DNA from: a virus
Lineage: Duplodnaviria; Heunggongvirae; Uroviricota; Caudoviricetes
DNA length: 40,690 bases
Virus record (IMG/VR): IMGVR_UViG_2541047843_000008
Reading direction: 5' to 3' (one strand)
Shown: in pieces, positions 1-36,872 of the stretch
Layout of the letters: every line of letters starts with the position of its first letter
How positions within the stretch are numbered: the stretch's first letter is position 1
Notes under the pieces: generated by a model
The model's input: only the letters and a program-made list of their open reading frames with translations
Databases searched by the model: none
Told to the model about the DNA's origin: nothing
Translations under genes and position numbers: made by a program

Positions 1-516
1 ATGAAATTTAAAAAATGTCTTCTGCCTGTGGCAATGTTAGCGTCATTCACTCTGGCAGGATGCCAGTCAAATGCTGATGATCATGCCGCCGATGTTTATC
101 AAACCGATCAACTGAATACCAAACAAGAAACTAAAACCGTTAATATTATTTCCATTCTTCCCGCAAAAGTTGCCGTAGACAACGCCCAAAATAAACGGAA
201 CGCACAAGCCTTCGGCGCGCTTATTGGCGCTGTCGCTGGCGGTGTTATCGGCCACAACGTCGGGTCTGGCAGCAATTCCGGAACGACGGCAGGTGCAGTT
301 GGCGGCGGAGCTGTAGGCGCGGCAGCGGGTTCTATGGTGAATGATAAAACCTTAGTGGAAGGTGTTTCTTTAACATATAAGGAAGGCACCAAAGTGTATA
401 CCTCCACCCAGGTGGGTAAAGAGTGCCAGTTTACGACAGGTTTAGCCGTTGTTATTACCACGACGTATAACGAAACGCGTATTCAGCCAAATACCAAATG
501 TCCTGAAAAGAGCTAA
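1..516 (+). CDS. Outer-membrane lipoprotein with glycine-zipper region (SlyB/Pcp-like architecture); host flank or prophage cargo
   Basis: N-terminal lipobox LAGC; Gly/Ala-rich stretch GALIGAVAGGVIGHNVG...GAVGGGAVGAAAGS. Confidence 0.55.
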   Translation: MKFKKCLLPVAMLASFTLAGCQSNADDHAADVYQTDQLNTKQETKTVNIISILPAKVAVDNAQNKRNAQAFGALIGAVAGGVIGHNVGSGSNSGTTAGAVGGGAVGAAAGSMVNDKTLVEGVSLTYKEGTKVYTSTQVGKECQFTTGLAVVITTTYNETRIQPNTKCPEKS

Positions 517-531
517 TAATCAGGAGGAGTC

Positions 532-1071
532 ATGAAGAAAGTTTTTCTTTGCGCCATCTTAGCCTCCTTAAGCTATCCGGCTATCGCCTCATCATTGCAG
601 GATCAACTCTCGGCTGTCGCAGAAGCGGAACAGCAAGGTAAAAATGAAGAGCAAAGGCAGCATGACGAATGGGTCGCGGAGCGCAACAGGGAAATCCAGC
701 AAGAGAAGCAACGTCGCGCAAACGCCCAGGCCGCGGCTAATAAAAGAGCGGCAACGGCAGCAGCGAATAAGAAAGCTCGTCAGGATAAACTGGACGCCGA
801 AGCCACTGCGGACAAAAAACGCGATCAAAGTTATGAAGATGAGCTACGTAGCTTAGAGATTCAGAAACAAAAACTGGCGCTGGCGAAAGAAGAAGCCCGC
901 GTCAAGCGCGAAAACGAATTTATCGATCAGGAACTGAAGCACAAAGCTGCGCAAACCGATGTGGTGCAATCTGAAGCTGACGCAAACAGAAATATGACTG
1001 AAGGCGGTCGCGATCTGATGAAAAGCGTGGGTAAAGCAGAAGAGAATAAATCAGATAGCTGGTTTAACTAA
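532..1071 (+). CDS. Secreted charged coiled-coil protein, function unknown
   Basis: Signal-peptide-like N-terminus MKKVFLCAILASLSYPAIAS followed by K/E/Q/A-rich low-complexity sequence; SD-like AGGAGG upstream. Confidence 0.5.
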   Translation: MKKVFLCAILASLSYPAIASSLQDQLSAVAEAEQQGKNEEQRQHDEWVAERNREIQQEKQRRANAQAAANKRAATAAANKKARQDKLDAEATADKKRDQSYEDELRSLEIQKQKLALAKEEARVKRENEFIDQELKHKAAQTDVVQSEADANRNMTEGGRDLMKSVGKAEENKSDSWFN

Positions 1072-3087: not shown

Positions 3088-3366
3088 ACTTTCTCCTGTT
3101 TACTATCTATAAGCCAGTCAATTATTGATGACTAAACCCGCATAGTAAACCATATATGAATCATTATTGTTCCATATCATATATCTCAATAAAAGTACTA
3201 ATGATTTTACAGAACGAGCCAGCAGAGTGGGGGCAGTTGTACAGGAACCATAGACTTAATTTTGTATTTAATAATGCTATGGTGTAATAAACCTGAACAT
3301 GTATTTAAAATACGTACTGATTCATGATAGAATTCAAAGATAACTTTTCACCAACTCAGTTTTTGA

Positions 3367-3395
3367 TGCCCGCAATATTTTGCGGGCTTTTTTTT
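3367..3395 (+). terminator. Rho-independent terminator, plus-strand orientation only
   Basis: Stem GCCCGCAA / TTGCGGGC followed by 8 T on the plus strand; abuts the tailspike stop. Confidence 0.5.
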
Positions 3396-6300
3396 AACGT
3401 TCTTCCAGAGACTGAACCCGCTCTTTTATCTTATCCATTTCTCTGCGCTGCCATGCTGCCTCGATATAGAATAAGAGATCAGGTCTGACCCCCCATCTAG
3501 ATCCTGCTGGCGTTATTTCAACGCGCTCAATGATGTCTTCCATTACCATCACTGGATTATCATCCTCATCAACAATGATGCTCCCGTCATTATCAGTCAG
3601 CGGCATTTCCCTTTGGCCAGTAATGACGTCATCATATACTGCGGGATAATCGTCATAGCAAAGAAAGGCATAGCGGCATGTTGTGCTTTCTTCTTCCATG
3701 AGTCCGTGAGAAATAAGAACATCACGAAGTTGCTGCGCGATTACACCATGATGTATCCTCGCCCCTTCTTCCCCCTTTATAGCGACAGCGTTCAGCCATT
3801 TATAAGCGATATACCTGACGTCACCCCAGGCATCCAGCAATGCTTCGTCAGGAGAGACAGGCTCTGTCTTTAATGTTCCGTCACTGGTAACCACAGGATT
3901 GGAGCCAAGATAAACTGTCGAGAACCTGTTTCCCGGACCACCAAGAGCATTTACATTATCAAGATAAGGTTTAACATCTCCGTTCTCAAAAAGATGTTCG
4001 AGTGCGTTATATACCGCGCGACGTGGAGTACTGCTTCCGGAACCATGCAACGTTATCATTGCACCATCTGCTGAAGACGTTGTTTCACCGCCGCTAACGA
4101 TTAATCTCTGAGCGGTAACATCATCAGACGGTACTTTCTTCGCAATAATGGCGTAATTACCCTCAAGTTTGACTTCCGCGCGAACTTGTCCTGATGTACC
4201 TGCATGGACAGTCAGTGACTGGACGGCAACATCATCTGTGAAATCAACGGGTACAGGAACCGTCCTCACGCCTGACGTCGACATAAAAGTAGGAAGCGTT
4301 CTGTTAGGAGTGGCTCCGTAGACAAAATCCCTTGAAACAAATTCTTCCTGTTTAATTTTCACCCTGAAACAATACAAATCAGCCGGGTGACCATCGTGAA
4401 CATAAGGATATTTTCTGTTGTTATCCCCTATGCTCCATGGGTTTAGAAAGTCTTCCCCACCGAAAATGTAGTACAGCCAGTTGTCTTTGATACAAACTGA
4501 ACCAACACCAACCGCAGAGTTAACTATTCCGCCCTGATAAATCTGATCAGTAACATTAACCCACTCTACATTATCCAGACTCCACTCATTGACGTTAACT
4601 CTGGTCATAAATGTTCTTGGATAATTTCCTGCATAACGGTTATCAGGTTCTCCTCCTTCCCACTCACCAAATGCGCGCTCACTGCCAAAAATAATCAGCT
4701 CATCGCCAACTTTGGCAAAAGGAAGGTTTGAGTGATGAACATTATTTGGGAAGCGAAGAGAATTCCATGATGTACCTAAATCAGAGCTTCTGTGCAATGA
4801 ACTACCGGGTTGAGTACTTAATGTCCCCCTGGTCGTCAGATACAGAATGCCATCATAATATTTTACACATGGCTCAGATGCATTCGCCTCATATTCTACA
4901 GGTATGCGTCTGCGAACAAAGCTACCAGGAGAACCGAAAGCATCAGAGAAATAGAGTATCCCAAGCTCGCGTGGACCAATATCACCATTATGGTAGCCAA
5001 CAGCAAAACTGTTATCGCTAATCGTCGCAAAACTGTGAATCTCAGTAACAGGAGTGCTTCCGTCAACAAAAGAAGGAATAGTTCCAAGACTGGTTTTTCT
5101 CCATGGTGACGAGTGAAATGATGTGCCAAAACTCCAGTATCTACCCTCGTTATTCTGATCCACATCCTGGGTATTTTGCGTCGTAACTGTAAAGGTATTT
5201 TTATCAATAACAGTAGTCACCGTCATATTCCCGGTAACACCTGTAACACCAGAGTTTGAGAAGTTGACAAAATCACCAGCAAATAATCCGTGATCAGTAA
5301 TGCGAATATAAGCGACTTGCTGATTTGCTGCTTTCGTTATACCACCATAAACGCGAAGGCTGCGACTCATTGGGCGATCCCACAACTCTGCAACCTGCAG
5401 TTTATTTCCTCTCACGGTCCGCGTCTCAATTACAGCAAAAAGGCGATTTCTGACAACCCCCATACTCATGCAGTGATAGTTAACTGTGGGATAGTTTTCA
5501 TGTAAATCTGTAAGCCATTCCGGCGTTGTCCAGGTCTTCCCGTCATCTCCTGAGCGAACCCATGCAACATGGAGGTTATTTACACCATGGCGGTCTCCAG
5601 CCATAAAAGGCGCATAGATGACATTGTCATATACAAACGTTTTATCCTGCGTCCAGGCGTTGTACCACGGTGTATCTGTAATTTTAAATAACTCTCCCTG
5701 GATAAAATCTTCAGAAGCATAAAAAAGAGGCTGGCCCGGTATTCTCTCAAATAAAAAACGAGCATTTTTAAATCGACTGACATCCGGAAGAGTTGATACT
5801 TTAAAAGTAAGCCCTAATCCGTCAATTTTATAACCTGGAGATGAGGCTTCAAGGCACGCGCTTATTGCAGTGGAATCGTCATTTATACCATCACCAACAG
5901 CTCCAAAATCTTTGGGGCTAATAGCATCACGCATTTTATCCTGGAACGTTCGGTACACAGCCCCAGAACCATACTGAATAAACCAACCAAAACCACCAAC
6001 AACCCCGGCGATTGCAGCATCGACATAATTACGCATTGAGCGATTATTTACAGCGTCCTGCTCAAGTGATGGATCTGCAAGGTTAGAAATTTTGTTTTGC
6101 TTTGCATCGTAATATTTTGCAAGCAAAGATGGTTTCATCAATGCACGTCTGAACCACCCAAAACATTGCTGGATCAGCATCGTCAGGTAGTCAAAAGCAT
6201 CTTCATGCACTTCGGGGAAAAATTTTCCCTGATTGCGAAGGTCTGTCTCCTGCACTACATCAAGCACACGATCTATCGTAATTCGCCATCCAGCAGCAAG

Positions 6301-6513
6301 CGGAGACGGAAGAACAACAGAACCGCCACTATAAGTGCCCGCCCCAGTTACCGTATAACCGGTATCCAGAACCAATTCTGTTACGTTCCCGTTCAGGTCA
6401 GACACCTGAACAACCAGGTCGGATTTTTTGAAAATACGGAAGGTATACGGAAATGATGTCGTAACGCCGTTACCTGTGTATTCGTTGTGGTCAACTTCGG
6501 TTGAGACCGTCAT
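3394..6513 (-). CDS. Tailspike/tail fibre: T7 gp17-like N-terminal anchor, depolymerase domain with sialidase-type Asp-boxes (candidate endosialidase), C-terminal intramolecular chaperone (S74-like) domain
   Basis: N-terminal ~120 aa with gp17-like pattern; DFGAVGDGINDDS; Asp-boxes SGDDGKTW and SSDLGTSW; C-terminal VTSDGTLKTEP...HHGVIAQQ chaperone-like region. Confidence 0.85.
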   Translation of the reverse strand: MTVSTEVDHNEYTGNGVTTSFPYTFRIFKKSDLVVQVSDLNGNVTELVLDTGYTVTGAGTYSGGSVVLPSPLAAGWRITIDRVLDVVQETDLRNQGKFFPEVHEDAFDYLTMLIQQCFGWFRRALMKPSLLAKYYDAKQNKISNLADPSLEQDAVNNRSMRNYVDAAIAGVVGGFGWFIQYGSGAVYRTFQDKMRDAISPKDFGAVGDGINDDSTAISACLEASSPGYKIDGLGLTFKVSTLPDVSRFKNARFLFERIPGQPLFYASEDFIQGELFKITDTPWYNAWTQDKTFVYDNVIYAPFMAGDRHGVNNLHVAWVRSGDDGKTWTTPEWLTDLHENYPTVNYHCMSMGVVRNRLFAVIETRTVRGNKLQVAELWDRPMSRSLRVYGGITKAANQQVAYIRITDHGLFAGDFVNFSNSGVTGVTGNMTVTTVIDKNTFTVTTQNTQDVDQNNEGRYWSFGTSFHSSPWRKTSLGTIPSFVDGSTPVTEIHSFATISDNSFAVGYHNGDIGPRELGILYFSDAFGSPGSFVRRRIPVEYEANASEPCVKYYDGILYLTTRGTLSTQPGSSLHRSSDLGTSWNSLRFPNNVHHSNLPFAKVGDELIIFGSERAFGEWEGGEPDNRYAGNYPRTFMTRVNVNEWSLDNVEWVNVTDQIYQGGIVNSAVGVGSVCIKDNWLYYIFGGEDFLNPWSIGDNNRKYPYVHDGHPADLYCFRVKIKQEEFVSRDFVYGATPNRTLPTFMSTSGVRTVPVPVDFTDDVAVQSLTVHAGTSGQVRAEVKLEGNYAIIAKKVPSDDVTAQRLIVSGGETTSSADGAMITLHGSGSSTPRRAVYNALEHLFENGDVKPYLDNVNALGGPGNRFSTVYLGSNPVVTSDGTLKTEPVSPDEALLDAWGDVRYIAYKWLNAVAIKGEEGARIHHGVIAQQLRDVLISHGLMEEESTTCRYAFLCYDDYPAVYDDVITGQREMPLTDNDGSIIVDEDDNPVMVMEDIIERVEITPAGSRWGVRPDLLFYIEAAWQRREMDKIKERVQSLEER

Positions 6514-6617
6514 GTTAAATCTCCAGATAGTCGCAGCACCCGTTGCGCCGCATATCTGGTTATTCTATTACCTGAAAAACCACATATGGATAGATAACCC
6601 ATAAATACGAAAAGATA

Positions 6618-6632
6618 TTACCTTTCAGGTGA
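6618..6632. promoter_or_regulatory. Operator-like palindrome variant TTACCTTTCAGGTGA
   Basis: One-mismatch copy of the recurring TTACCT-N3-AGGTAA palindrome, between the tailspike start and a plus-strand moron. Confidence 0.4.
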
Positions 6633-6669
6633 TTTGCAAAACGTGCTGGATAGCAAACAAATTATTTGA

Positions 6670-6689
6670 TACTGTATATTTATACAGTT
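6670..6689. promoter_or_regulatory. LexA (SOS) box upstream of the small antirepressor-like gene
   Basis: TACTGTATATTTATACAGTT fits CTGT-N8-ACAG with AT-rich spacer; 20-40 nt upstream of the ATG candidates at 6695 and 6710. Confidence 0.6.
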
Positions 6690-6709
6690 ATTGCATGGAG
6701 AAGATTAAG

Positions 6710-6967
6710 ATGCAGCAGTATCACTATCCACTGGAAGACGGATTTACCGAAAGGATTCACACGCCGGGAGGCGTCAGGTCACTGGTGGAGGGATCGCACT
6801 TGATGAAATTACTCCGGGATCTCGATAAGGATGGATTTAATGTCGATGGCCCACTTGCCGAACTGACTGCACTGATTAACTACGTCACCAGCTCACAGAT
6901 GTCTATGCAGGATCTGCAAACACATCTCGACTATTGTGCCGAACAATTACGAAAACAAACCAGATAA
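6710..6967 (+). CDS. Small antirepressor-like protein: stand-alone paralog of the C-terminal domain of the neighbouring antirepressor (Tum-like candidate); alternative start 6695
   Basis: About 80 aa align with the C-terminus of the 7285..7941 product (e.g. [36 protein letters not shown]); GGAG 9 nt upstream of ATG. Confidence 0.5.
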   Translation: MQQYHYPLEDGFTERIHTPGGVRSLVEGSHLMKLLRDLDKDGFNVDGPLAELTALINYVTSSQMSMQDLQTHLDYCAEQLRKQTR

Positions 6968-6998
6968 GGTTTGCAATTACCAAGTGGAGTGCTTATAT

Positions 6999-7013
6999 TT
7001 ACCTTTTCGGTAA
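6999..7013. promoter_or_regulatory. Operator-like palindrome TTACCTTTTCGGTAA
   Basis: Copy of recurring TTACC-N5-GGTAA palindrome downstream of the small ant-like gene. Confidence 0.45.
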
Positions 7014-7104
7014 ATTTACATCGCACTCCTCTTGTGCCATAGTAATCGGGCACTGGCAAAATCCAGTGCCGGGATTGGTCTCCCGGATTACTAAGTGGCG
7101 CATA

Positions 7105-7127
7105 CCACGCCAGACGTGGTTTTTTTA
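7105..7127 (+). terminator. Rho-independent terminator after the small antirepressor-like gene
   Basis: Stem CCACG / CGTGG with 5-nt loop followed by 8 T. Confidence 0.5.
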
Positions 7128-7284
7128 TGCGTATAGCACAGTCATGCCAGAATTATGGTGGGCTGAATGGGGGTCCGAAAGGACGCCGGTACCACTTAGG
7201 CCGGTAAGACCAACTCCGTTCAGTTCACCACCATCTGATTGGTCTCAGCGGTGGTGATGTAATTCGCTAAGTGGAGACGCCATC

Positions 7285-7941
7285 ATGAACGCTCAACTCA
7301 TCCCCGTATTCAACGGCACTATATCTAACGAAACAGCCCTACTTTGTAATGCCCGCGATCTGCACGCTTTTTTAGGTGTTAAAAAGGTGTTTGCAGCATG
7401 GATTACAAATCGCATATCAGAATACGAATTCATTGAAAATCAAGACTATATTTTGCTTTCCAATTTGGGAAAGCAAACATCTGGTAGAGGCGGCCACAAC
7501 CGCAAAGAGTACCACCTCACCCTTGATACAGCCAAAGAGCTGGCGATGGTCGAGCGTAACGAAAAAGGTCGCCAGGTGCGACGCTACTTCATTGAATGCG
7601 AGAAACGTTTAAGACAACAAGAAACAAAAGTGGAGAAGGTCTTGTCAGGCTTCATGCCCGCCATAATGGAGGCGATCAAGCTGGAAGACAAAAAAGAATA
7701 CAGCGCCCCACTGAAGCCCGGCTACCGCAGCCTGATTCATTCGCCGTCTGGTGTTCTCGGCCTGACGGAGAACTCACTGCTGATGAATCTGCTGAACCAG
7801 TTACAGGACGACGGGCACGACGTATCGGGCGCGGCGGCGGAGCTGACCACCATGTTCTGCTACATCGTCGGTGTGAGCAAATGCCTGCGTGATATCCAGA
7901 CCCACGCGGAGTACATCAACGACAAGGCAGGGTTCTTCTGA
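7285..7941 (+). CDS. Antirepressor-like protein (N-terminal Ant-type domain plus C-terminal domain shared with 6710..6967)
   Basis: N-terminus resembles phage antirepressor N-terminal domains as recalled; SD GGAGA upstream; C-terminal paralogy seen directly. Confidence 0.6.
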
Positions 7942-7949: not shown

Positions 7950-7972
7950 GGCACAGGGATGTGCCTTTAAAT
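7950..7972 (+). terminator. Putative terminator after antirepressor gene
   Basis: Stem GGCACA / TGTGCC with GGGA loop followed by TTTAAATAATT. Confidence 0.4.
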
Positions 7973-8013
7973 AATTCTGTACAGATTGCAGACCGGGGGT
8001 GAATAGCGTACTA

Positions 8014-8028
8014 TTACCTTAAAGGTAA
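8014..8028. promoter_or_regulatory. Operator palindrome TTACCTTAAAGGTAA upstream of the two-gene cassette
   Basis: Perfect TTACCT-N3-AGGTAA palindrome 43 nt upstream of the ATG at 8071. Confidence 0.5.
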
Positions 8029-8070
8029 ACCTGTTTTTATTTTATACCTGTAACTTACCGGAGATTAAAG

Positions 8071-8397
8071 ATGACAAAACTTGGATTCGTGATGAGAGGT
8101 CCGGTAAGAAGCGGAACTCATGCAAAGCGTAGCAAGAGTCGTATTTTTACTGGTAAGGTTGTAGCACGTAAATCAGCTATTGGCTCGTTCAATAGTGAAA
8201 ATGCGGCATTGCGCCATATTTTTATCAGCACAAAGCCAAGAGCATCCGCTGATGTGCATACAATGTCTATTCCTATCACAAAGAATATCAAGCGGATAAA
8301 AAAGCTCTCATCTGCAGAATCAAAAGAGATATCTTTCCGCCAGCTTAACTCATTAGAAACGCATATGAAGGAAGAGGAATTCGATGTTTTTGAGTGA
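8071..8397 (+). CDS. Hypothetical basic protein, first gene of unassigned two-gene cassette
   Basis: ATG with GGAG SD; K/R/S-rich N-terminus; AT-rich moron-like composition. Confidence 0.5.
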   Translation: MTKLGFVMRGPVRSGTHAKRSKSRIFTGKVVARKSAIGSFNSENAALRHIFISTKPRASADVHTMSIPITKNIKRIKKLSSAESKEISFRQLNSLETHMKEEEFDVFE

Positions 8398-8896
8398 GTA
8401 TAGCGGGAAGGTTATACCTACTGGTGAGTTTAAAACTGATGACTTTCTGATTTCGCTAAAAGATGCTTTTAAACAACACTGGCGTCATGGTCATCATCCT
8501 GATCTGGGAAAAGATACTCTTTTTGAAAGACCAGACGAAGTATTAGGCTTCCATCTCAGAAAGGTTCATGTCAATATTGGTGAATATGCATCATATTCAT
8601 ACTCATGTACTGAACAGTGTTGGGATGAGTGGTCATATGGATTGATTGATGAACAAGGAAATTACAGGCCAAAACCAACCAGTAACGCATATCTCATATA
8701 TGCAGTCAATGAAATAAGAGATGCAGCCTTACTAGCTTATTGGGACCCGCCCGCACACACCAAAGCTAACGCAAAAGTTTGGATGGATTCCGTATTGAAT
8801 TTCACAAAATTATTTCATGAACGAACGAATACAGCTCCACTTAGTAGAAATGTTTATCCGTGGGATTATTCGTACAAATCCAAAAAGCCTGCATAG
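8384..8896 (+). CDS. Hypothetical protein, second gene of cassette (His-rich segment HWRHGHHPD)
   Basis: ORF overlaps upstream gene end by 14 nt (translational coupling); no recognisable family. Confidence 0.5.
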   Translation: MFLSEYSGKVIPTGEFKTDDFLISLKDAFKQHWRHGHHPDLGKDTLFERPDEVLGFHLRKVHVNIGEYASYSYSCTEQCWDEWSYGLIDEQGNYRPKPTSNAYLIYAVNEIRDAALLAYWDPPAHTKANAKVWMDSVLNFTKLFHERTNTAPLSRNVYPWDYSYKSKKPA

Positions 8897-8977
8897 TAGT
8901 TTTTTATGGACGAAACAAAAGTCAGTGCTACACTCATTGACGCCACATTGAGGTGGCTTATAGATGGAAATGTCACA

Positions 8978-9170: not shown

Positions 9171-9467
9171 TCACGTCCCTTTTCTGAATGATAGCCATTC
9201 GAAAAATGATGACATTCCACCGCAGACAATAGCAAAGATGATCCCACCAAAGAAGAGAAGGCCAGCCTGCCACCACTCCCACCGCCATACATCCACAGCG
9301 CCAACCATACCAACAATCGCTCCAACAAATGGAATATAGCTCACGATGAAAGCAATGGGGGCTGCAATTATCCAGTGCAATCCCCACCATGATTCAAGCC
9401 CAGCCATAATTGCTGCCAACTGAAAAAGACCAACGACGATATAAACAATGAATCCTATAGCTTGCAT
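9171..9467 (-). CDS. Multi-pass inner-membrane protein immediately after the ejection-protein genes; candidate superinfection-exclusion (SieA-position) protein
   Basis: Three or four hydrophobic helices, Trp-rich; start taken at ATG preceded by AGGTG SD. Confidence 0.5.
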   Translation of the reverse strand: MQAIGFIVYIVVGLFQLAAIMAGLESWWGLHWIIAAPIAFIVSYIPFVGAIVGMVGAVDVWRWEWWQAGLLFFGGIIFAIVCGGMSSFFEWLSFRKGT

Positions 9468-9663
9468 GTAGTCACCTAATTTACCCAGTAAAAATAAGAG
9501 GCCTCCCCTCAATAAGGCTTGCAACAAGAACTACTCCCTGCACAACAAAGATGAACCAGCAAATAGCTTGAGTCTGAGGGTTAAGAAAATATTTGTAGCG
9601 GTCAATAAATAACAATCCACCAGAAATTATCACACTCAAAATAATTAAAAACACAACACTTCC

Positions 9664-17001: not shown

Positions 17002-17465
17002 TATTTTCTCTCCATGTGAAATCTGTGGAAATTAAGACCAAGAGCACCATAAGGCGCGGCTTCTTCAAGCCTGAATCCAAGCCAGTGCAGCCATGCTTTG
17101 GCAACATGGTTTCGCTCGTCGACGTAGTTTTCCAGGCGCGGATAAACTGCCAGCATCTGCTGCAATACAGGGAGGCAGTGGCGAAGAAATGTCTTCTGAT
17201 ATTTTTCAATACGGCTGGTTCCTACCAGCCAGGGCGTACCATTGCCACCGATCATTGACGCCGGAGATACGCCAAACATGGTTACCAGTTCTCCGTTCGC
17301 AAATCCTGACCAGGCCATAGTCGCAGTACGCAGACCAACACGCAGCGCATCTTCGGTAGTCATCAGTGATACCGCATACAGTTCGTCAATATCAGCCTGA
17401 CGAACATCCGGCAAAATCATCTGAAGATGCTCTTCGGTTGCGGGAATAATTTGAACATCGACCAT
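17001..17465 (-). CDS. Virion-associated protein (T7 gp13 position), function unknown
   Basis: 154 aa, translationally coupled between the tail tubular B-like and gp14-like genes. Confidence 0.4.
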   Translation of the reverse strand: MVDVQIIPATEEHLQMILPDVRQADIDELYAVSLMTTEDALRVGLRTATMAWSGFANGELVTMFGVSPASMIGGNGTPWLVGTSRIEKYQKTFLRHCLPVLQQMLAVYPRLENYVDERNHVAKAWLHWLGFRLEEAAPYGALGLNFHRFHMERK

Positions 17466-19936
17466 CAGAATCCCCCAACAGTAAGGCGAGGAATAACGGC
17501 AAGAACAGACAGCGGCAACGGATCAAGCTGACGGATTTTTACACGTCCGTTTTTGCCCCAGTTACTGTCCAGTTTCACTTCTACTTTTCCGGTAGCATCA
17601 TCAACAGGATCATCGTAGAACTCGAATTCACGCTGTGGATATTCGTACCATTTACCGCCGGGCGTAGTCGCCCAGATGCCGCGACTGGCATTCACAACCA
17701 GAGTAACGGACGGGATCACCTGTTTTTTGTCCAGCAGCGTTTCCTGTCCGTTAATGTTGATATCCAGTGTTTCGAATTCAGCAGTTATTGGCAGGCCGAT
17801 GTGCACAACAGCCCCAGGTGATTCCAGCGTGACGGCACCTCCGGAAACCACTTTCTGTGGTTCCACGTTCGCATCAGAGAGGATGTTTACGGTCTGGCCT
17901 TCAAGATGAGACAAGCCGCCAAATGTCCGGCGCGCCATCTGCCAGTTCGTGGTGGCCACATTCCTGAGGGATGGCGGGACGTTCCTGTTAGCACGAACCA
18001 CTACAGCGGTATTGCTGGTTACAGAAATAATGTCGCAACGTAATTCTTTTGACACCTCATCGCCAGTATCAGGATCAGTTCCGGTATAAGGGAACTGTAG
18101 TTGCGCGCCGACATCACTACTGGTGAAGTACGCACCACCAGAAACACTGATTGTATATTCCGCGCAGTAATCCCATTCGCCAGAACCACCAGTGATGGTC
18201 ATCGTTCTGTCAGACGTATTTCTTCCATCATAGCTAAGGCCAGAATCAACAAAGAAAGCATCTTCATCGCTGGTAAATAAACGGCTGGACAGTCGCTCGA
18301 TGTATCTCACTGTTTGCCCGTTAACGGTTCGGTTAATGACGAAATACACCGCATCTTCATTGCCTTCGCTGATACTGCATGTGCTTTCATATTTTCCGGT
18401 ACTGGACTGTGGTGCCCATGCAAAAACCTGTTGATCACGCAAATAGGTCATCACCAGTAATTTACCGTCATCACGAATGCAGAAGGCGCTGGAGTAAGGG
18501 ACTATCGAGAAGCACCAGTCAACAATGCTGTGCTTCTGAAAAAGATGATTGGCAAGGATGGTCAGGTCGTTCCCCTGATAGCCGTCAACATCGAATGAGT
18601 AGGCCAGATCACGGACAACGCTGCCTTTCTCCTGGACGAACAGAGCAATATTCGCCACGGCAATTGGTGGGACATTGCTCGAGCCATTTGATCCCTGAGA
18701 GCTGAATGCAAATGATGATGGGGTAAGCACTTTGTTCTGGTCGCCAGTGATGACGTACTCACCTCCGGAAGTCAGCGCCACCAGCGAACCAACATCAATC
18801 AGGTGACGGATCTCATTAACCTGACGCCCGGCATAGGTGTAGATAATTCTGTCGTCATCCTGCGTAGGATTGCTTTTGCCAAAATCCTTATAATCCCCAG
18901 TACGGCTGGCCCAGATAGTCTGAGGGAACGCAGTCGATGCGGCGAAGTAAAGACGCTGTTGATAATAAACAACAGTGCCAGGATAACCATTAACACTGTT
19001 CCAGGCATATTTAGCCCATTTATAGCTGGCATTATCCTCGCCCACGACCTGCGAAGGGATATAGGAAATCACCTCGGCAGTTGCAGTAGTTCCATTTGCA
19101 GCAGTGATACGGGCAATGCCAAAACCACTGTGCAGATATTCCCACTCAATGCCAGTATCATCATCACCGGATCCGCCCCAGCCATCCCATGATGTGCCTT
19201 CTGTATGCGAAGGGCGCAAAGTACCTGTTTTGCCTGCTGTAACGGCGCGATAGTAGTTACTGTCTGCACGGCGAATATCGCCAATCGACGTACTCTTACT
19301 GGTTTCCCATACCGGCACAGAATCCACTGCAGGCTGTTCCAGATAGAACAATTTGCCTACCTGCTCCGCGCCAAAAATAGAGGCGCTTGCCGTTAACGTA
19401 ATTGTCCCGGTGCTGGCGCTGGCATAAACCGTCAATGACTCATCAATATTGATATCTTCAAATGGCCCGTTCTTCGTTACCACATCAACCAGTTGCCAGT
19501 TGTCATGCGCATAGCGACGCAACTCTTTCGGCGGGTATGCCGGATGAACAAGCGTAAGCACGTCTGCGCTTTGCGTGAATTTAATTCGGAACAGATCGGC
19601 TTCAGTATATGGCGTGGCAATTTCATAAATAACATTGCTGCTGTTCAGCACCAACGCACCATCTTTGATAACGCGCATGTACTGGTGTCCGAACTCCAGA
19701 GCATAGGTCTGAACCGTCGAGAACTGGAACGGGATCAGGCGGCATTTCCGATTTGGGTATTTGGCGGCACCGACAAAACGCGTACCAGGTCGATTCTCAA
19801 CGCCGCCATACTGCCGCACGATAAAGTTATCGCACTTGCGCAATGCCACCTGGTACTTCGCCATGTCGATACGTCCGTACAACGACGGTCCAATCTCACC
19901 ACCAGCAAAGCTGGGCTGGATCCAACTGATAGCCAT
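17465..19936 (-). CDS. Tail tubular protein B-like (nozzle), T7 gp12 position
   Basis: 823 aa directly after the gp11-like gene; size and position match T7 gp12. Confidence 0.6.
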   Translation of the reverse strand: MAISWIQPSFAGGEIGPSLYGRIDMAKYQVALRKCDNFIVRQYGGVENRPGTRFVGAAKYPNRKCRLIPFQFSTVQTYALEFGHQYMRVIKDGALVLNSSNVIYEIATPYTEADLFRIKFTQSADVLTLVHPAYPPKELRRYAHDNWQLVDVVTKNGPFEDINIDESLTVYASASTGTITLTASASIFGAEQVGKLFYLEQPAVDSVPVWETSKSTSIGDIRRADSNYYRAVTAGKTGTLRPSHTEGTSWDGWGGSGDDDTGIEWEYLHSGFGIARITAANGTTATAEVISYIPSQVVGEDNASYKWAKYAWNSVNGYPGTVVYYQQRLYFAASTAFPQTIWASRTGDYKDFGKSNPTQDDDRIIYTYAGRQVNEIRHLIDVGSLVALTSGGEYVITGDQNKVLTPSSFAFSSQGSNGSSNVPPIAVANIALFVQEKGSVVRDLAYSFDVDGYQGNDLTILANHLFQKHSIVDWCFSIVPYSSAFCIRDDGKLLVMTYLRDQQVFAWAPQSSTGKYESTCSISEGNEDAVYFVINRTVNGQTVRYIERLSSRLFTSDEDAFFVDSGLSYDGRNTSDRTMTITGGSGEWDYCAEYTISVSGGAYFTSSDVGAQLQFPYTGTDPDTGDEVSKELRCDIISVTSNTAVVVRANRNVPPSLRNVATTNWQMARRTFGGLSHLEGQTVNILSDANVEPQKVVSGGAVTLESPGAVVHIGLPITAEFETLDININGQETLLDKKQVIPSVTLVVNASRGIWATTPGGKWYEYPQREFEFYDDPVDDATGKVEVKLDSNWGKNGRVKIRQLDPLPLSVLAVIPRLTVGGF

Positions 19937-20544
19937 CAGGACAACCTCGCAATGGTAAACTCGTCAACCGGTGGCTGTGGTTCCTGTGATTCATTCTGGC
20001 TATGCGAGCCAGCACTAAGAATCACGCGATTGTACATATTGAGAGCAAATGTACCGAGATCCGCATTCCCAGTCAGCGCCATGTTAATGGCTGCCGCAAG
20101 ACGCCAGGCCAGCGCCTCCATAAAAATGGCATCAAACATGTTTACATCTGAAACGCGAGAGACATACTTGAGCCATGCCTGAGGCTGGTCTGTGTAGATC
20201 AACTTTCCTGTTCCGTTGGTGTCTGCACCAACTTCGTACTGAACGCGCATTGCTGCTGTTGGATTGCGTACACCAGGAAGCATAATTTCAGTAATGCGCA
20301 GACAATCTGACGGGTACTGGTACGCATATTCCCAGTCAGGCGGTGGATTGCTCGTATCTGCAAGCGCCACGCGTTTGGTAGCAAAGTTCCAGTCAAAATC
20401 AGAAAGCACAGCATCACGGCAGGCCTCAAAGTGCAGCGAACATTCCCCCGCTTCCTTGCTGGCTTCCGTCAGGCTGTTAATGCTGCGGCTGTTGCCAATA
20501 TTGGACAGCGCACGATTACAGATCTCTACTACAGAGGCCATCAC
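19936..20544 (-). CDS. Tail tubular protein A-like (adaptor), T7 gp11 position
   Basis: 202 aa directly before the gp12-like gene with overlapping stop/start. Confidence 0.5.
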   Translation of the reverse strand: MMASVVEICNRALSNIGNSRSINSLTEASKEAGECSLHFEACRDAVLSDFDWNFATKRVALADTSNPPPDWEYAYQYPSDCLRITEIMLPGVRNPTAAMRVQYEVGADTNGTGKLIYTDQPQAWLKYVSRVSDVNMFDAIFMEALAWRLAAAINMALTGNADLGTFALNMYNRVILSAGSHSQNESQEPQPPVDEFTIARLS

Positions 20545-23452: not shown

Positions 23453-23745
23453 TCCTGTTCACTGGCCTCTTTGGCCATCTTCAAATACTGTTCAGGGCAA
23501 TGCGCCATAACGCGCTGAAACAGTTCCAGCGCCAGATTGCGTTGCCCCTCATTAAATGCCATTGCCATAGCATCCATCGGAGAGATAGCGGAAAACACCC
23601 GGCCTTTCTCCAGCACCGACCAGACAACGCGACGCCCCTGTTCACTGCTCATGACAAAGCGAATGTCATCAATTTCACGCTGCTCCATGTCACGTTGCTT
23701 ACGGGCGTTTTCTTCTTTCAGTTGATCGTCTTCGTAATCTGTCAT
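23449..23745 (-). CDS. Hypothetical protein between portal and scaffold
   Basis: 98 aa, overlapping start/stop with neighbours. Confidence 0.4.
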   Translation of the reverse strand: MTDYEDDQLKEENARKQRDMEQREIDDIRFVMSSEQGRRVVWSVLEKGRVFSAISPMDAMAMAFNEGQRNLALELFQRVMAHCPEQYLKMAKEASEQE

Positions 23746-25421
23746 TGTGATTGCCCACCCTGACCACTAACTGCATTCGCCATAGCTGACAAAACACTCG
23801 GATCCGAAGTTTTAGCTTCGCTTAGCGTCTTGGCGCCCTGTGCCGCCGCCATCCCCATCGCCATCATTTGTTGCTGCTGTTGCTGCTGTGCCCGTTGCTG
23901 GCGAGCCTGCTCAACCTGTTCCTGCGGAACAATGACGGTTGGAGACACTCCGGACATATCAGCGAATGCATCGATCGCCTGATCAACGTTGAGTTTGTCG
24001 AGAGCTTCTGGTTTCGCTTGCGCAAGTTGACCAATGAAGTTAACCGTGGACGCCAGACTGGACAGGCCGATAGACTTCTGCGCCTGAGCCATGACGGAAA
24101 TGTATTCGACCTTCAGGGGCATACCTTCCATCACGTCTGGCGGTGGCGGCAGCATGTTTTTACGCACCATCATCGAGAAAGAGCGGTCAATGAGAGGATT
24201 AAGACATTCGTCGTTCAGACGCTCCAGAACCGGCCCCAACATCAGAAGTTTTTCTTCTTTCATTTCGATCACCGCTTCAACAGGCATCGAGCGGGTATTG
24301 ATGTTCTGCAACATCATGAACAGATCGACAAAGTAGGCGCTGTTAATGATTTGACGAGTGTCCTGAATGTCTGCCACCAAATCTGCTGTACTGGGGTTAA
24401 CCAGATAAGCAGGCCTGAAACCATCCTGACCAGTAATCTGATCGATATACGTGATGTCGCCAGGAAGAAGGGAGGCACGCTGATTCTTGAGGGAAGTCGG
24501 AGCAACCATCGGCGGATTGGTGGCTTTATCAATCAACTGCGACTTGCGCTTCTGGAGAAGCTGCAATGCCTTAACAGGTCCAAGCGCCAGCATACCCGGG
24601 CATGATGATCCATAAACATCTTCGCCGTTAACTTCCCAGCGCGGAGCCATAATTGGAAACTCATCGAATCCGGACTCACGCAACAACTTGTCGTTATCGC
24701 CACCAACCTCGTAATAAACCGATTTGAATGGCTTGTTCTTGCTATCCAGCTTCGATGTATCGCGGTCAATGTTCGGGTAAACCGAATGCATCACTTCAAT
24801 CCACTTCTCGTAGGTTCCGCTTTCCCACATGCTTTTTACGGATTCGCTGACGTTATTTAGCCCGAACTCCTGAACAAGCTGACGAACAGTCATAGAGAAC
24901 TTGCGAAAACAGGTGTCCACACTGCCACGAGGTGAGTTAGCCAGGTAGTAACTGCCTATCGGGAATGGCATTGTGCGAATGATGTCCTCGTCATCCTCCA
25001 GCACTGCCATTGCACCAGTGCTGTATGTGCCGAGGCTTCCGTATAACTGCGGCAGCGACTGATAGAGATTCGACTTATTGAACATATCGTTCATGCGGTT
25101 CTGCACCGCCTCAAGCCACAACTTAACAGGGCCATAATCCATCATTTCAGGATCTGGCGTAGCCAGGCGAAACCACGGACGCGCGGGGCTTGTGATGCCT
25201 GACATCATGCCGCTGGCGAGAGTGCGCGCCGCCATAGTCCCGGTCGAATCAATAATGCGTGTATTGCGTCGATCGTTACGGTTGGCCTCAGAAGTCAGAA
25301 AGCGGGAACCACGCGGGTTGATGTAATCACTCAACTCGCGCCAGTGCGGCTCGAACGACTGACGCTCGCTTTCAAGTTGTGCGAACTGTTTGTTCAATCG
25401 CTCTTTAGTTGTTTCCGCCAT
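23742..25421 (-). CDS. Portal (head-tail connector) protein, T7 gp8-like
   Basis: 559 aa; Gln/Met/Ala-rich C-terminal tail as in T7 gp8 as recalled; GGAG SD. Confidence 0.8.
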   Translation of the reverse strand: MAETTKERLNKQFAQLESERQSFEPHWRELSDYINPRGSRFLTSEANRNDRRNTRIIDSTGTMAARTLASGMMSGITSPARPWFRLATPDPEMMDYGPVKLWLEAVQNRMNDMFNKSNLYQSLPQLYGSLGTYSTGAMAVLEDDEDIIRTMPFPIGSYYLANSPRGSVDTCFRKFSMTVRQLVQEFGLNNVSESVKSMWESGTYEKWIEVMHSVYPNIDRDTSKLDSKNKPFKSVYYEVGGDNDKLLRESGFDEFPIMAPRWEVNGEDVYGSSCPGMLALGPVKALQLLQKRKSQLIDKATNPPMVAPTSLKNQRASLLPGDITYIDQITGQDGFRPAYLVNPSTADLVADIQDTRQIINSAYFVDLFMMLQNINTRSMPVEAVIEMKEEKLLMLGPVLERLNDECLNPLIDRSFSMMVRKNMLPPPPDVMEGMPLKVEYISVMAQAQKSIGLSSLASTVNFIGQLAQAKPEALDKLNVDQAIDAFADMSGVSPTVIVPQEQVEQARQQRAQQQQQQQMMAMGMAAAQGAKTLSEAKTSDPSVLSAMANAVSGQGGQSQ

Positions 25422-26069: not shown

Positions 26070-26146
26070 GTGGCATTAGCTCAGTCGGACAGAGCAACCG
26101 CCTTCTAAGCGGTTGGTCGCAGGTTCGAATCCTGCATGCCACGCCA
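26070..26146 (+). tRNA. tRNA-Arg (anticodon UCU, reads AGA), phage-encoded
   Basis: Cloverleaf read by hand: acceptor GTGGCAT/ATGCCAC, D-arm GCTC..GAGC, anticodon loop CUUCUAA, T-arm GCAGGTTCGAATCCTGC, discriminator G, CCA end. Confidence 0.9.
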
Positions 26147-28955: not shown

Positions 28956-29188
28956 CAAAGTCCATCAAATTCATCGTAAAAACTCTCGTCAAGATACCCT
29001 TCCCATTTACCGCGAATGAAAATTACATCCTCGCCGCAAGGGTGCTGACTGTCGATAACTATATCCCTCCTGGCGCAACCATACTTATGCATGAGAAATT
29101 TAACCTCTTTCGGAAAATTTGCTGAGTTATCTCTCATATCTTCAAGGTCGTAGCGTATTTTTGGCATAACACCTTCGTGACATGTCAC
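28955..29188 (-). CDS. Hypothetical protein
   Basis: 77-aa ORF in nin-like block. Confidence 0.4.
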   Translation of the reverse strand: MTCHEGVMPKIRYDLEDMRDNSANFPKEVKFLMHKYGCARRDIVIDSQHPCGEDVIFIRGKWEGYLDESFYDEFDGL

Positions 29189-29526
29189 ACTATTAATTTC
29201 GTTTCATGCCAGCCTTTGGTCACCCAGCATTGCGAGTCACCATTACACGGGCATGAATTAACTGGAACTCTCTCGCCGCACTTACCGCAACGTTTTCTGC
29301 TGATCGATTTTATACGCCCGCGCACGCGTGCATCATCCTGGCGGATCAGTAACGCTATATACTCACCAAATTCGTAAGGCGCACGCCCGGGGCGACGCGT
29401 GGCACAGTTACGCTCCAGCATTTCAATTTCCTGAGCATCAAGCACAATCTCCAGTTTACGCACACCAGATGCAGCTTGTCTGGCTCTCTGAGCGGCTTTG
29501 CGCTCTGCTGCTGATTTAGCCATCAA
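29185..29526 (-). CDS. Hypothetical Cys-rich (zinc-finger-like) protein
   Basis: CGKCG...CPCNGDSQC cluster; basic N-terminus. Confidence 0.4.
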   Translation of the reverse strand: MMAKSAAERKAAQRARQAASGVRKLEIVLDAQEIEMLERNCATRRPGRAPYEFGEYIALLIRQDDARVRGRIKSISRKRCGKCGERVPVNSCPCNGDSQCWVTKGWHETKLIV

Positions 29527-29797
29527 TATTCACCTTTATCGCGAACACCTTTACCGGTTTATCGCCGAAGTGCGGATGTGTGATTGTCTTGATTTCATAT
29601 CCGTCATACGGGACGTCAATTCTGCGGCTGGAATCGTCGCGCTTCGGATATCCCTTTGTGATAATCAGGCGGTCATACTCGCGGAACATAATTCGCTTAT
29701 TCCAGTAGTCATTACACAGGCGATACTCTTCCGTTTTCTCTCCGCGAATCATGGCATCGAAGTATTCACCTTTAACGGCAAGTTGCAGGTTAGCCAC
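29516..29797 (-). CDS. ASCH/PUA-like (DUF3850-type) small protein
   Basis: N-terminal LAVKGEYFDAMIRGEKTEEYR resembles the ASCH-domain start. Confidence 0.45.
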   Translation of the reverse strand: MANLQLAVKGEYFDAMIRGEKTEEYRLCNDYWNKRIMFREYDRLIITKGYPKRDDSSRRIDVPYDGYEIKTITHPHFGDKPVKVFAIKVNIDG

Positions 29798-29880
29798 GAC
29801 CTTCCTCCTTTGGCTTGTGAATTTGTATCGTCATGCCGCTTTGAGTGGTGACTACAACGACAGAACCAGGCTGAAGACTG

Positions 29881-30078
29881 TTAAGATTGAATGCTTCGTA
29901 AAACGAAGCCAAGGCCAGCGCTTTTTTTATTCTTTCGGTTCCACCAACGCCATCCATTGCTACAGGCTACACTGACAATCCACTGTCCACTCCTGTAAGC
30001 CATATAAAACCAGATGAGCAAAACCTGAATGAATGCTATCCAGTCAATAATCGTATATTTCGCGAAGGAGACCATCAA
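29881..30078 (-). CDS. Small putative membrane protein
   Basis: 65 aa with one hydrophobic segment; start overlaps upstream stop. Confidence 0.3.
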   Translation of the reverse strand: MMVSFAKYTIIDWIAFIQVLLIWFYMAYRSGQWIVSVACSNGWRWWNRKNKKSAGLGFVLRSIQS

Positions 30079-30509
30079 TTAACCTCCTGCGGCGGTTCCG
30101 GTAGAGGCATCCAGTACAAGGCGTTCCCTAACCACGATAAAGTGCCGTCGCTCAACTCCACGTATTCCCCTTGTACCTGTCCTGCCATATACTCGCCGTG
30201 CTTTGAATAAATTAAAATCCAATCATCTTGAGGGGGCATTCGCTCACTACAGCTTATCCAACCATCCGGAGTTACCGGATAGTTGCCCGACAGCTCGTTC
30301 AACTTGTAAGTTTGGCTTACAGGTTCTGCACTATCAGCTTCGCGCCGCTTCTGTAGCTCTGCTGCCATCGCTCTCACGACTTCAACTGGTGCCCTTGCAG
30401 CAAACTCTATGTTGGTGATCAGCTCATTAAGATATTGCTCGCCTGGATACTGTTTCTTATCGGTTATAGTGGTCATATCACTCTCCTTTGATGCGAATGC
30501 CTGTTGCAA
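30075..30509 (-). CDS. DUF551-type phage protein
   Basis: C-terminal WISCSERMP...W...Y pattern typical of DUF551 as recalled. Confidence 0.5.
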   Translation of the reverse strand: MQQAFASKESDMTTITDKKQYPGEQYLNELITNIEFAARAPVEVVRAMAAELQKRREADSAEPVSQTYKLNELSGNYPVTPDGWISCSERMPPQDDWILIYSKHGEYMAGQVQGEYVELSDGTLSWLGNALYWMPLPEPPQEVN

Positions 30510-31026
30510 TGCTGTTTATGATGCTGTCAGTGCATGGGGTAGAAAGCTGGGCATCTCCAGCAATTTTCATGACCTCAACATCTGCATATCGAATACCGAG
30601 GTGTATCAGACCGGCTATGCCTGACTTAAGCCGAGCATTTTCCATAAATAGAACTTTTGCCCGCTGTTTTTCTGCTTCAAGCTCAACGCGCAGCTTCCCT
30701 ACCGTTAGCGCAATATCCTCGTTCTCCTTGTCGCGGGATTTTATGTATTGCTGGTTTCTTTCCCGTTCATCCAGTAGTGCCAGCGCAACATTTGGATTAA
30801 AGGCAGCAATAAATTCAGCGTTTGCGTAAGCCTGAGCATCTGTTTCAACCAGGCAGTTAACATGACATTCTGCAATCACGCCACCGGGTTCTCCTTTCCA
30901 TTTTTGGCAAACAAAAACTCCTGTTAAATTGCCGTGCTGGTTAACAGATGTATGCCCTACGATGTAGCTCCCTTTCGTTGCCTTTTCTGCCGCATCACGC
31001 AGTGCCTGATAATTAATTTCGCTCAC
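30478..31026 (-). CDS. Ead/Ea22-like protein
   Basis: N-terminus MSEINYQALRDAAEKAT resembles Ead/Ea22-like prophage proteins; coiled-coil middle. Confidence 0.45.
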   Translation of the reverse strand: MSEINYQALRDAAEKATKGSYIVGHTSVNQHGNLTGVFVCQKWKGEPGGVIAECHVNCLVETDAQAYANAEFIAAFNPNVALALLDERERNQQYIKSRDKENEDIALTVGKLRVELEAEKQRAKVLFMENARLKSGIAGLIHLGIRYADVEVMKIAGDAQLSTPCTDSIINSIATGIRIKGE

Positions 31027-31247
31027 TCTTCATCCTCCAAGTCGGCAACGGCGTCCATCACATCAGAACCGCGAATAACCTCAAAAGCACGGCAGGCCAT
31101 TTGAAATACCAGTTGCTCTTGCGGGTGAGGAGACTCCCAATATTTGAAGCCTGGGCGATGCGTGTACCCCATCATTGAATAAAAATCACCAGCAAGCTTA
31201 ATCGCGGCATCGACAAGCTCTCTGTTAGTCATTCTTTTTCCGCTCAC
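31023..31247 (-). CDS. Hypothetical protein
   Basis: 74-aa ORF with coupled start/stop. Confidence 0.35.
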   Translation of the reverse strand: MSGKRMTNRELVDAAIKLAGDFYSMMGYTHRPGFKYWESPHPQEQLVFQMACRAFEVIRGSDVMDAVADLEDEE

Positions 31248-31539
31248 TGGCTGCCTCCTTTACTGGGCTTTCGAATGTATCAAACTCAAACAACTTAACT
31301 ACGTCATCAAACAGGACATAATCGCCATCAGAATCTTCAGTCATGTCAGCGCCACAATCCTGACCGAACGAGTCACAACCATCCATATCAAGCTCGTATC
31401 GCTTGAGTTTTGCGATATTTGATAAATTCAGCGCCAGTACAGCAAGGTCATAAACCTCATCAGCGGTATACCCGGCACCATGCCCATACATTTCAATACG
31501 GGATATGATTTCTTCTACACGTTGTTTTGTGATCGTCAT
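31225..31539 (-). CDS. Hypothetical acidic protein
   Basis: 104-aa ORF in nin-like block. Confidence 0.35.
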   Translation of the reverse strand: MTITKQRVEEIISRIEMYGHGAGYTADEVYDLAVLALNLSNIAKLKRYELDMDGCDSFGQDCGADMTEDSDGDYVLFDDVVKLFEFDTFESPVKEAASERKKND

Positions 31540-31952
31540 TTTTGCTCACCTTCCTGTTCTTCCAGAAAAATACGCATAGCCTCAAGCATCTCTTCGGTAT
31601 CATACGGAGACAGCTTGTCACGCAGGATGTGTTCAATGCTGTTAATGAACTTGCGGATTGCTTTGCGTTCAATTTCAGCCAGGAAAGCGTCGGTGGCTGG
31701 GGTTTCCGTGAAGTTGTCCTCCCAACCGTAGTACTCCTGACGACAGAAGTTATTAAATTCCTTCTCCGACTGTTTAAGCCCAGCATTCTCCGCTGCCAGC
31801 GCATTAGCACGCACCAGTTGCACTTCCAGTTGCGTTGCCAAATCGCTGATCAGCTTTGCCACACTGCGCATATCAACGGCACCACATTCTGCGTTCAGTT
31901 CCGAAGCCATCTCATGCCCGGCGGCAACTAACCCTTTGATATTACTTTCCAT
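31536..31952 (-). CDS. Hypothetical protein
   Basis: 138-aa ORF in nin-like block. Confidence 0.4.
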   Translation of the reverse strand: MESNIKGLVAAGHEMASELNAECGAVDMRSVAKLISDLATQLEVQLVRANALAAENAGLKQSEKEFNNFCRQEYYGWEDNFTETPATDAFLAEIERKAIRKFINSIEHILRDKLSPYDTEEMLEAMRIFLEEQEGEQK

Positions 31953-36863: not shown

Positions 36864-36872
36864 GGAGAAAAA

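Follow-up and report, generated by a model that had tools for sequence, protein, structure and literature searches.

A predicted K1 endosialidase tailspike of an epsilon15-like Escherichia coli prophage joins a Uetakevirus anchor to a CUS-3-type cassette

Which capsule does a prophage tailspike attack, on which kind of virion is it mounted, and from which phages were its parts drawn? These questions are raised by one gene (3394..6513, minus strand) of the IMG/VR virus record IMGVR_UViG_2541047843_000008, a 40,690-nt stretch of DNA whose whole length is called the window below. A first-pass annotation, made from the sequence alone, had read the gene product as a candidate endosialidase with a T7 gp17-like anchor and a self-cleaving C-terminal chaperone. 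We conclude that the gene product is almost certainly the tailspike with which a temperate podovirus of E. coli K1, an integrated phage of the epsilon15-like type (Uetakevirus), destroys its receptor. The domain content, the residue conservation, the genome context, the mosaic joints and the K1 genotype of the hosts of near-identical copies, on which this conclusion is built, were observed directly and are described in turn.

Domain content and active site of the tailspike

The gene is one unbroken open reading frame (ORF) of 1039 aa, and in the ORF list the remaining ORFs overlapping it on both strands encode at most 119 aa each. All five motifs quoted in the first-pass annotation were present, namely DFGAVGDGINDDS at residues 202-214, VTSDGTLKTEP at residues 875-885, HHGVIAQQ at residues 921-928, and two Asp-boxes (Table 1), which had been placed about 260 aa apart and whose starts are separated by 255 aa. 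The two Asp-boxes were the only matches to the pattern S-x-D-x-G-x-x-[WFY] in the whole protein, and they are not chance motifs, because both aligned with the Asp-boxes of endoNF, the gp17 of lytic phage K1F (HMMER, PDB 1v0e/3gvl, E = 0).

In Pfam, the protein generated hits on five families over their curated cut-offs, in the order found in phage endosialidases (Table 1). The End_beta_propel match spanned the full model (1-367), and residues 205-876 were matched with E = 0 by crystal chains of endoNF (1V0E, 3GVL and mutants). For residue mapping, the window protein was aligned with K1F gp17 and SiaK1, the endosialidase of phage CUS-3. The catalytic and substrate-binding residues of endoNF, H350, R549, E581, R596 and R647 (PMC12632334), corresponded to H309, R515, E547, R562 and R613 of the window protein, all five being kept. 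As Pfam, structure matches and residue mapping agree, a sialidase fold, an active site and a self-cleaving chaperone are all supported. The candidate proposed at first pass can thus be regarded as a predicted GH58 endosialidase on the strength of its domains, Asp-boxes and active-site residues, with an enzymatic activity that would follow that of its homologues.

The likeness to endoNF (PDB 1V0E, 3GVL, 3GW6) extended over residues 196-1039 at 61.8% identity. From the N-terminal extension through to the chaperone, the domains follow one another in the same order, and the two proteins have the catalytic residues, the Ser-Lys dyad and both Asp-boxes in common. Within the propeller, 312 of 443 residues (~70%) were identical to endoNF and 448 of 450 to CUS-3. 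The window protein differs from endoNF by a 7-residue loop at residues 482-488, which K1F endoNF lacks, and by its anchor, which is epsilon15-type, whereas that of K1F gp17 belongs to the true T7 gp17 family (PF03906, E 3.7e-17) and is accompanied by a Tail_spike_N domain.

A pectate-lyase-like beta-helix depolymerase, in place of a sialidase, was considered for the central domain. Depolymerases of that kind commonly have a GAVGDGxxDD motif, and at residues 201-221 Pfam gave a weak match to Pect-lyase_RHGA_epim (E 0.035; 14.3 bits, cut-off 27). However, this sub-threshold match spans 21 residues that lie in End_N_terminal (E 5.9e-32), and the next 450 residues matched the endosialidase propeller (E 1.7e-232) and crystal structures (E = 0). 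The beta-helix reading is therefore refuted by the Pfam endosialidase domains and the endoNF structure matches; the first-pass annotation had allowed for a central domain from another depolymerase family without a sialidase fold, and what was found there is the sialidase propeller.

Self-cleavage of the C-terminal chaperone

A search for the Peptidase_S74 chaperone, which had been suggested together with the motifs, gave a match above the cut-off for PF13884 at residues 877-937 (E 1.7e-10, 41.4 bits against a cut-off of 22), and the stalk-plus-chaperone structure 3GW6 matched residues 757-1038 (E 1.9e-93). Self-cleavage of endoNF uses the Ser-Lys dyad S911/K916 assisted by R897 (PMC8326128), which corresponded to S877/K882/R863 in the window protein, all kept; R863 was invariant in the three-sequence alignment. 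Of the two endoNF residues reported to be essential for chaperone domain function, N912 and G956, the latter is kept as G923 (for N912, see Discussion).

The self-cleaving chaperone of the first-pass annotation is thus retained with respect to its residues, but the bond it had named, between S877 and D878 in the TSDG stretch, has to be moved upstream by one residue. The processed endoNF crystal chains end with ...NPIVT, aligned to ...NPVVT876 of the window protein (1v0e/3gvl), the bond cleaved in T5 pb1 is Thr1263-Ser1264 (PMC4690869), and the processed MYRF product stops directly before the catalytic serine (PMC3742443). Because of these three precedents, the predicted bond is most likely that between T876 and S877 (between nt 3886 and 3885), and its cleavage would release 163 residues.

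Put together as a mechanism, residues 1-204 would fasten the trimer to the tail adaptor/nozzle, and residues 205-876 would form the GH58 endosialidase, consisting of the N-terminal extension, a six-bladed beta-propeller with an inserted beta-barrel, and the stalk. The chaperone (residues 877-1039) would drive folding of the stalk and trimerization, and would then remove itself via the Ser877-Lys882 dyad with the assistance of Arg863, most likely at the bond predicted above.

Mosaic structure of the gene and its relation to CUS-3

CUS-3 (accession no. CP000711) is a P22-like temperate podovirus of E. coli K1 whose SiaK1 has the same catalytic and chaperone residues as the window protein. The GenBank entry of siaK1 flags endo-alpha-sialidase activity as supported by direct assay evidence (PMID 16689790), and the record carries this 2006 reference. 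Residues 234-1025 of the window protein showed 6 amino-acid differences from SiaK1 among 792 (~99% identical), while residues 1-233 and the last 14 residues diverged sharply. The 5′ joint with CUS-3 falls at residues 233/234, inside the End_N_terminal domain and not at the anchor boundary: differences from CUS-3 were frequent up to residue 233, and only one (residue 266) followed within that domain. Residues 204-233 are endosialidase-like, yet close to neither CUS-3 nor phage HEMP4, a phage with a closely related anchor (see below). By these comparisons the tailspike gene is a mosaic of a Uetakevirus anchor and a 2.4-kb cassette near-identical to the CUS-3 endosialidase (Table 1).

The N-terminus of SiaK1 is a P22-type head-binding domain, in contrast to the epsilon15-type anchor of the window protein. 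Module exchange of this kind is known for K1 phages from CUS-3, with its P22 head-binding domain, and K1F, with its T7 anchor (Stummeyer 2006, as summarized in PMC5380687). The window gene is the same K1-phage module exchange on a third chassis.

At least seven genomes with the window-type gene, among the 60 carriers listed, also held a CUS-3-type head-binding segment at ≥ 99.8% identity. One double lysogen is E. coli IHE3034 (accession no. NC_017628.1), in which the CUS-3-type tailspike gene is located at 2,715,108-2,718,053 and the Uetakevirus-type gene at 2,884,245-2,887,364, in prophages ~166 kb apart that each possess their own copy of the endosialidase cassette. Its CUS-3-like module is complete, with intS, an acyltransferase gene (neuO-type), the gene for a 981-aa tailspike, and ant. 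Double lysogens such as IHE3034 make K1 lysogens a natural setting for tailspike module exchange. It is possible, though we propose it tentatively and rate it below even chance, that the cassette moved between CUS-3-like (P22-type) and Uetakevirus prophages within a doubly lysogenic K1 cell by crossovers at short conserved stretches, one in End_N_terminal (233/234) and the other in the last 14 chaperone codons.

The two cassettes of IHE3034 differ at 6 residues, and residues 266, 826, 866 and 891 separated Uetakevirus-borne from CUS-3-borne cassettes in all sequences compared, including those of IHE3034. Ongoing gene conversion between co-resident cassettes was therefore not supported, as these four residues keep the lineages apart even within one cell. 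The four lineage-separating substitutions point away from continuing gene conversion and towards one transfer in the past, and a single transfer of the cassette is the simplest reading.

The N-terminal anchor and its docking partners

Residues 1-204 generated hits on PHROG tail families with E values down to 8.5e-139. In tblastn, the anchor was 94.6% identical to that of phage HEMP4 over residues 1-203 and 69% identical over residues 1-165 to that of a phiV10-type phage (E. coli O157 typing phage 10), identities to phiV10-type and related phages being 67-71% over residues ~1-166. The likeness to the tailspikes of these epsilon15/phiV10-type phages (E. coli O157 typing phage 10, HEMP4) stops at the anchor. 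Their genes occupy the same genome position upstream of the lysis cassette. In epsilon15 gp20, for example, an O-antigen endorhamnosidase that also has an esterase domain makes up the receptor-binding part, unlike the endosialidase of the window protein.

The first-pass annotation had called this N-terminus T7 gp17-like, which is correct as remote homology only. BLASTP of residues 1-204 against T7 gp17 aligned a 22-residue motif (134-155 with T7 128-149, E 0.044), and a PDB search with the window anchor as a single sequence found no T7 chain. The Pfam score for Phage_T7_tail (PF03906) was 16.6 bits against a cut-off of 25.2 (E 0.0064), with the best stretch limited to residues 135-161. As the score is under the gathering threshold and the pairwise match is confined to 22 residues, membership in the T7 gp17 family PF03906 was rejected. 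As these direct searches were too weak, profiles were needed to detect the relationship. When nine diverse anchors, taken from phages of E. coli, Pseudomonas, Xylella, Pelagibacter, Microcystis and Bordetella and from a metagenomic podovirus, were combined in a profile, residues 9-153 aligned with residues 8-148 of T7/K1F gp17 in 134 columns, with an hhalign probability of 91% and E 1e-6. Against PDB, the profile matched the T7 gp17 N-terminal chains (7boz/7ey9) with E 1.3e-4 and two further chains named 'tail fiber protein' with E 8.5e-6. On profile evidence, the anchor is thus remotely homologous to the N-terminal domain of T7 gp17 (PF03906; 7BOZ/7EY9) over ~140 residues, presumably with the same role in tail attachment, but it is not a member of that family. 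T7 gp17 itself is a fibre and has no enzymatic activity.

Carin-1 is a marine podovirus. The N-terminus of its tailspike Dpo31/Dpo36 (PDB 8CK1, 28LX) matched window residues 1-211 (E 1.1e-35), and Dpo31/Dpo36 residues 1-184 were matched by the window anchor (E 1.6e-32). Carin-1 shares the homologous attachment region, nozzle and adaptor with the window phage; PDB 8CK1, which gave the matches to the window nozzle and adaptor (Table 1), also holds the tailspike with the homologous N-terminus, and the virion map places tailspike N-terminal domain D1 at the virion base (PMC13317679). Because nozzle, adaptor and tailspike N-terminus all match Carin-1 8CK1, docking of the window anchor on the adaptor/nozzle is a well-founded inference, with a geometry that would be that of the homologues. 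The C-terminal domain D4 of the Carin-1 tailspike is likewise missing from the mature protein, whereas its catalytic domain and its substrate, a host exopolysaccharide, are different.

The window nozzle (17465-20544 region) matched that of Carin-1, a phage of marine Cobetia, and the portal region (23742-25421) is of the T7 gp8 Pfam family, so that the epsilon15-like tail hub seems to be widely conserved across distant hosts.

Capsule type of hosts carrying the tailspike gene

Of 5426 complete E. coli genomes, 72 had the full-length tailspike gene and 329 (6% background) had neuS, the K1 polysialyltransferase gene, for which the probe came from the kps cluster of UTI89. Co-occurrence was tested by appending 600 nt of neuS to the tailspike query and counting the matching places with and without it. 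The total increased from 692 to 1021 (+329), in agreement with the 329 neuS genomes, and exactly one extra matching place appeared in each of the 60 listed genomes. All 60 listed carriers are therefore neuS-positive, which means that at least 60 of the 329 genomes with neuS also have the tailspike gene; the direction of the association is unambiguous. Several carrier records are named O7:K1, O1:K1:H7 or O2:K1:H7. The K1 polysialic acid target proposed in the first-pass annotation is in keeping with these genotypes, near-identical copies of the gene being located in K1 hosts.

Preference of the GH58 enzyme for a substrate other than plain K1, such as O-acetylated polysialic acid or the alternating alpha-2,8/2,9 polymer of K92, appears very unlikely. 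The propeller is only ~70% identical to that of endoNF, CUS-3 has the O-acetyltransferase gene neuO beside the same cassette, and 14 of the 329 neuS matches were only 80-90% identical to UTI89 neuS and could represent another sialic-acid capsule type. A neuS at this level of identity may mark a capsule such as K92. However, every catalytic residue named for endoNF is kept, the 6 differences in 792 residues are from an enzyme that was assayed, and 311 of the 329 neuS matches were ≥ 99% identical to UTI89 neuS (counted over all neuS genomes, not per tailspike carrier). In addition, phage vB_EcoP_ZX5, with one difference in the cassette, plaques on and lysogenizes an O87:H52:K1 strain. Plain K1 polysialic acid thus remains the predicted substrate.

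Prophage identity and genome context

From 1163 to 40690, the window was ~98% identical to the temperate phage vB_EcoP_ZX5 except in several replaced segments. The taxonomy line of ZX5 reads Uetakevirus, and collinearity covers the structural, lysis and integrase modules. The 17-bp att core, which by published description is common to ZX5, phiV10 and epsilon15, has a single copy in the window, at 1163-1179, and it is precisely there that homology to ZX5 starts. The prophage of the window belongs to the epsilon15-like genus Uetakevirus and is integrated at the guaA attachment site. Positions 1-1162 contain the host genes yfgH and yfgI and were 100% identical to K1 strain IHE3034, which carries the same prophage at the same site. 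As this yfgH-yfgI stretch ends at the att core, its assignment to phage DNA was rejected; the PHROG label 'DNA methyltransferase' on the yfgH product and the 97% identity of the stretch to the record of phage TL-2011b look like host flank carried into phage databases.

The T7-like virion assumed in the first-pass annotation did not hold, and the virion is predicted to be epsilon15-like instead. The ~98%-identical phage is a Uetakevirus, its counterpart in the window has a capsid protein of the epsilon15 GP7 family, and only the portal falls in a T7 Pfam family (gp8); for the anchor and the adaptor/nozzle layout, the relation to T7 is remote.

Slightly more improbable still than a different substrate is a defective prophage in which the gene persists as a relic and no working tailspike is made. 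Many E. coli prophages are cryptic, and the homologue of strain 23CRST038 (accession no. NZ_AP045810.1: 3,431,589-3,436,021) is split by an IS3-family insertion. In the window, by contrast, the ORF is intact and has a ribosome-binding site, every functional residue checked is kept, and the Uetakevirus module set is complete and collinear with viable ZX5, one cassette residue apart. A working tailspike of the integrated Uetakevirus is therefore preferred.

Six segments had no megablast match to ZX5 (7263-7663, 7967-8899, 9176-9663, 28976-29174, 29524-31782 and 35968-37891), and they show that accessory and early-region genes were replaced in a mosaic manner. In the place of the RecE/RecT-like genes of ZX5, the window has ORFs 35964-36863 and 36873-37895. 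The region 8071-8896 has a low GC content (0.39) and two overlapping plus-strand ORFs of 108 and 170 aa. The 170-aa ORF generated a sub-threshold Pfam match to the YafO toxin (E 9.5e-4; 19.7 bits, cut-off 25), the IHE3034 annotation lists a YafO-family toxin in the matching accessory region, and 8071-8896 may be a toxin-antitoxin moron; PADLOC found no defence system among the accessory ORFs. A tRNA-Arg gene (anticodon TCT, 26070-26146, plus strand) is located inside the prophage, with the terminase and portal regions on either side.

Genes of the Ant (anti-repressor) family at 6629-7941 are divergent from the tailspike gene, and ant of CUS-3 likewise adjoins its tailspike gene. In CUS-3, neuO also adjoins the tailspike gene, whereas in the window no capsule-modifying gene (neuO) follows it. 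A tandem-repeat scan of the window detected no heptanucleotide repeat array (a neuO-like contingency locus, as in CUS-3), and none of the accessory ORFs scanned was recognized as an acyltransferase.

Downstream, a noncoding gap of 306 nt (3088-3393) separates the tailspike stop codon from a holin-like gene and contains the hairpin listed in Table 1. Its T-run is present on the plus strand only, so it would not serve as a canonical terminator for the tailspike transcript.

Table 1. Positions of the tailspike gene, its domains and motifs, and other features in the window. Residues are those of the tailspike protein.
Feature	Position	Strand	Basis
Endosialidase tailspike gene	3394..6513	-	ORF list; 1039 aa + stop; TAA = 3394-3396
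Virion anchor of epsilon15-like (Uetakevirus) tailspikes, residues 1-204	5902..6513	-	PHROG, tblastn, Carin-1 match, profiles
End_N_terminal (PF12218), N-terminal extension, residues 205-271	5701..5901	-	Pfam E 5.9e-32
End_beta_propel (PF12217), catalytic six-bladed beta-propeller, residues 272-721	4351..5700	-	Pfam E 1.7e-232
End_beta_barrel (PF12195), inserted into propeller, residues 383-465	5119..5367	-	Pfam E 3.2e-46
End_tail_spike (PF12219), stalk, residues 722-876, contains R863	3886..4350	-	Pfam E 8.4e-78
Intramolecular chaperone / Peptidase S74 domain, residues 877-1039, 163 aa	3397..3885	-	Pfam PF13884 and 3GW6
Asp-box 1, SGDDGKTW, residues 321-328	5530..5553	-	Aligned with SGDDGQTW of endoNF
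Asp-box 2, SSDLGTSW, residues 576-583	4765..4788	-	Aligned with SRDIGQTW of endoNF
2393-nt cassette, 99.4% DNA identity to CUS-3 endosialidase gene	3423..5815	-	megablast against CP000711, query positions 30-2422
GGAG ribosome-binding site	6521..6524	-	Read from sequence; ATG 7 nt downstream
GC-rich hairpin, 7 nt past stop codon, before lysis cassette	3368..3387	.	Terminator scan and sequence
Tail adaptor ('connector'), 202 aa, predicted anchor docking partner	19936..20544	-	8ck1_E 'Connector Protein', E 2.9e-26; PHROG tail protein
Tail nozzle, 823 aa, predicted anchor docking partner	17465..19936	-	PDB 8ck1_A 'Tail Nozzle', E 8e-218
yfgH, glycine-zipper lipoprotein	1-516		Host flank
yfgI, DUF5384	532-1071		Host flank

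Discussion

Four points weigh against the reading of the gene as the working tailspike of a K1 Uetakevirus. The enzymatic activity, the self-cleavage and the docking geometry of this exact sequence are deduced from homologues. N912 of endoNF, reported to be essential for chaperone function, is replaced by D878 in the window protein; CUS-3 likewise has Asp at this position, as does MYRF, a processed protein with an intramolecular chaperone (ICA) domain (D579). The association of the tailspike gene with neuS in 60 of 60 listed genomes is not phylogenetically independent, many of these genomes being from related lineages of extraintestinal pathogenic E. coli (ExPEC). Finally, the window holds just 1162 nt of host DNA, and a K1 capsule of its own host is suggested by the identity of this flank to IHE3034.

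The tailspike was correctly read at first pass but is already known. For ORF7 of ZX5, an endosialidase was described in the middle part, between a T7-like tail domain at the N-terminus and the endosialidase intramolecular chaperone at the C-terminus (Pathogens 2022, PMC9782041). The ZX5 tailspike has the same length and the same three-part architecture, and is 99.5% identical to that of the window in DNA and protein, with few substitutions, one of which lies within the 792-residue cassette. ZX5 is also of the same phage type as the window prophage, has the same att core and infects a K1 host, and it differs in the accessory and early-gene segments described above. The same nucleotide identity (99.5%) was found to genes of E. 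coli genomes labelled 'endosialidase catalytic beta-propeller domain-containing protein' in the RefSeq annotation. A claim of novelty fails because a 99.5%-identical protein was described in 2022, RefSeq annotates copies and CUS-3 has the same enzyme. Nor is the combination of such an enzyme with a temperate podovirus unusual, as the first-pass annotation had supposed, since temperate CUS-3 has it too and the ZX5 architecture has been published.

Among the main virulence factors of E. coli that cause neonatal meningitis and other extraintestinal disease is the K1 polysialic acid capsule. For the detection and removal of polysialic acid, endosialidases are in standard use as reagents, and they are candidate anti-virulence agents (PMC5380687). 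What the window adds is confirmation that, besides CUS-3, a second family of temperate podoviruses, the epsilon15-like phages, carries a K1 endosialidase. The window-type tailspike is common in E. coli, and its gene represents a clean case of module exchange between unrelated phage chassis.

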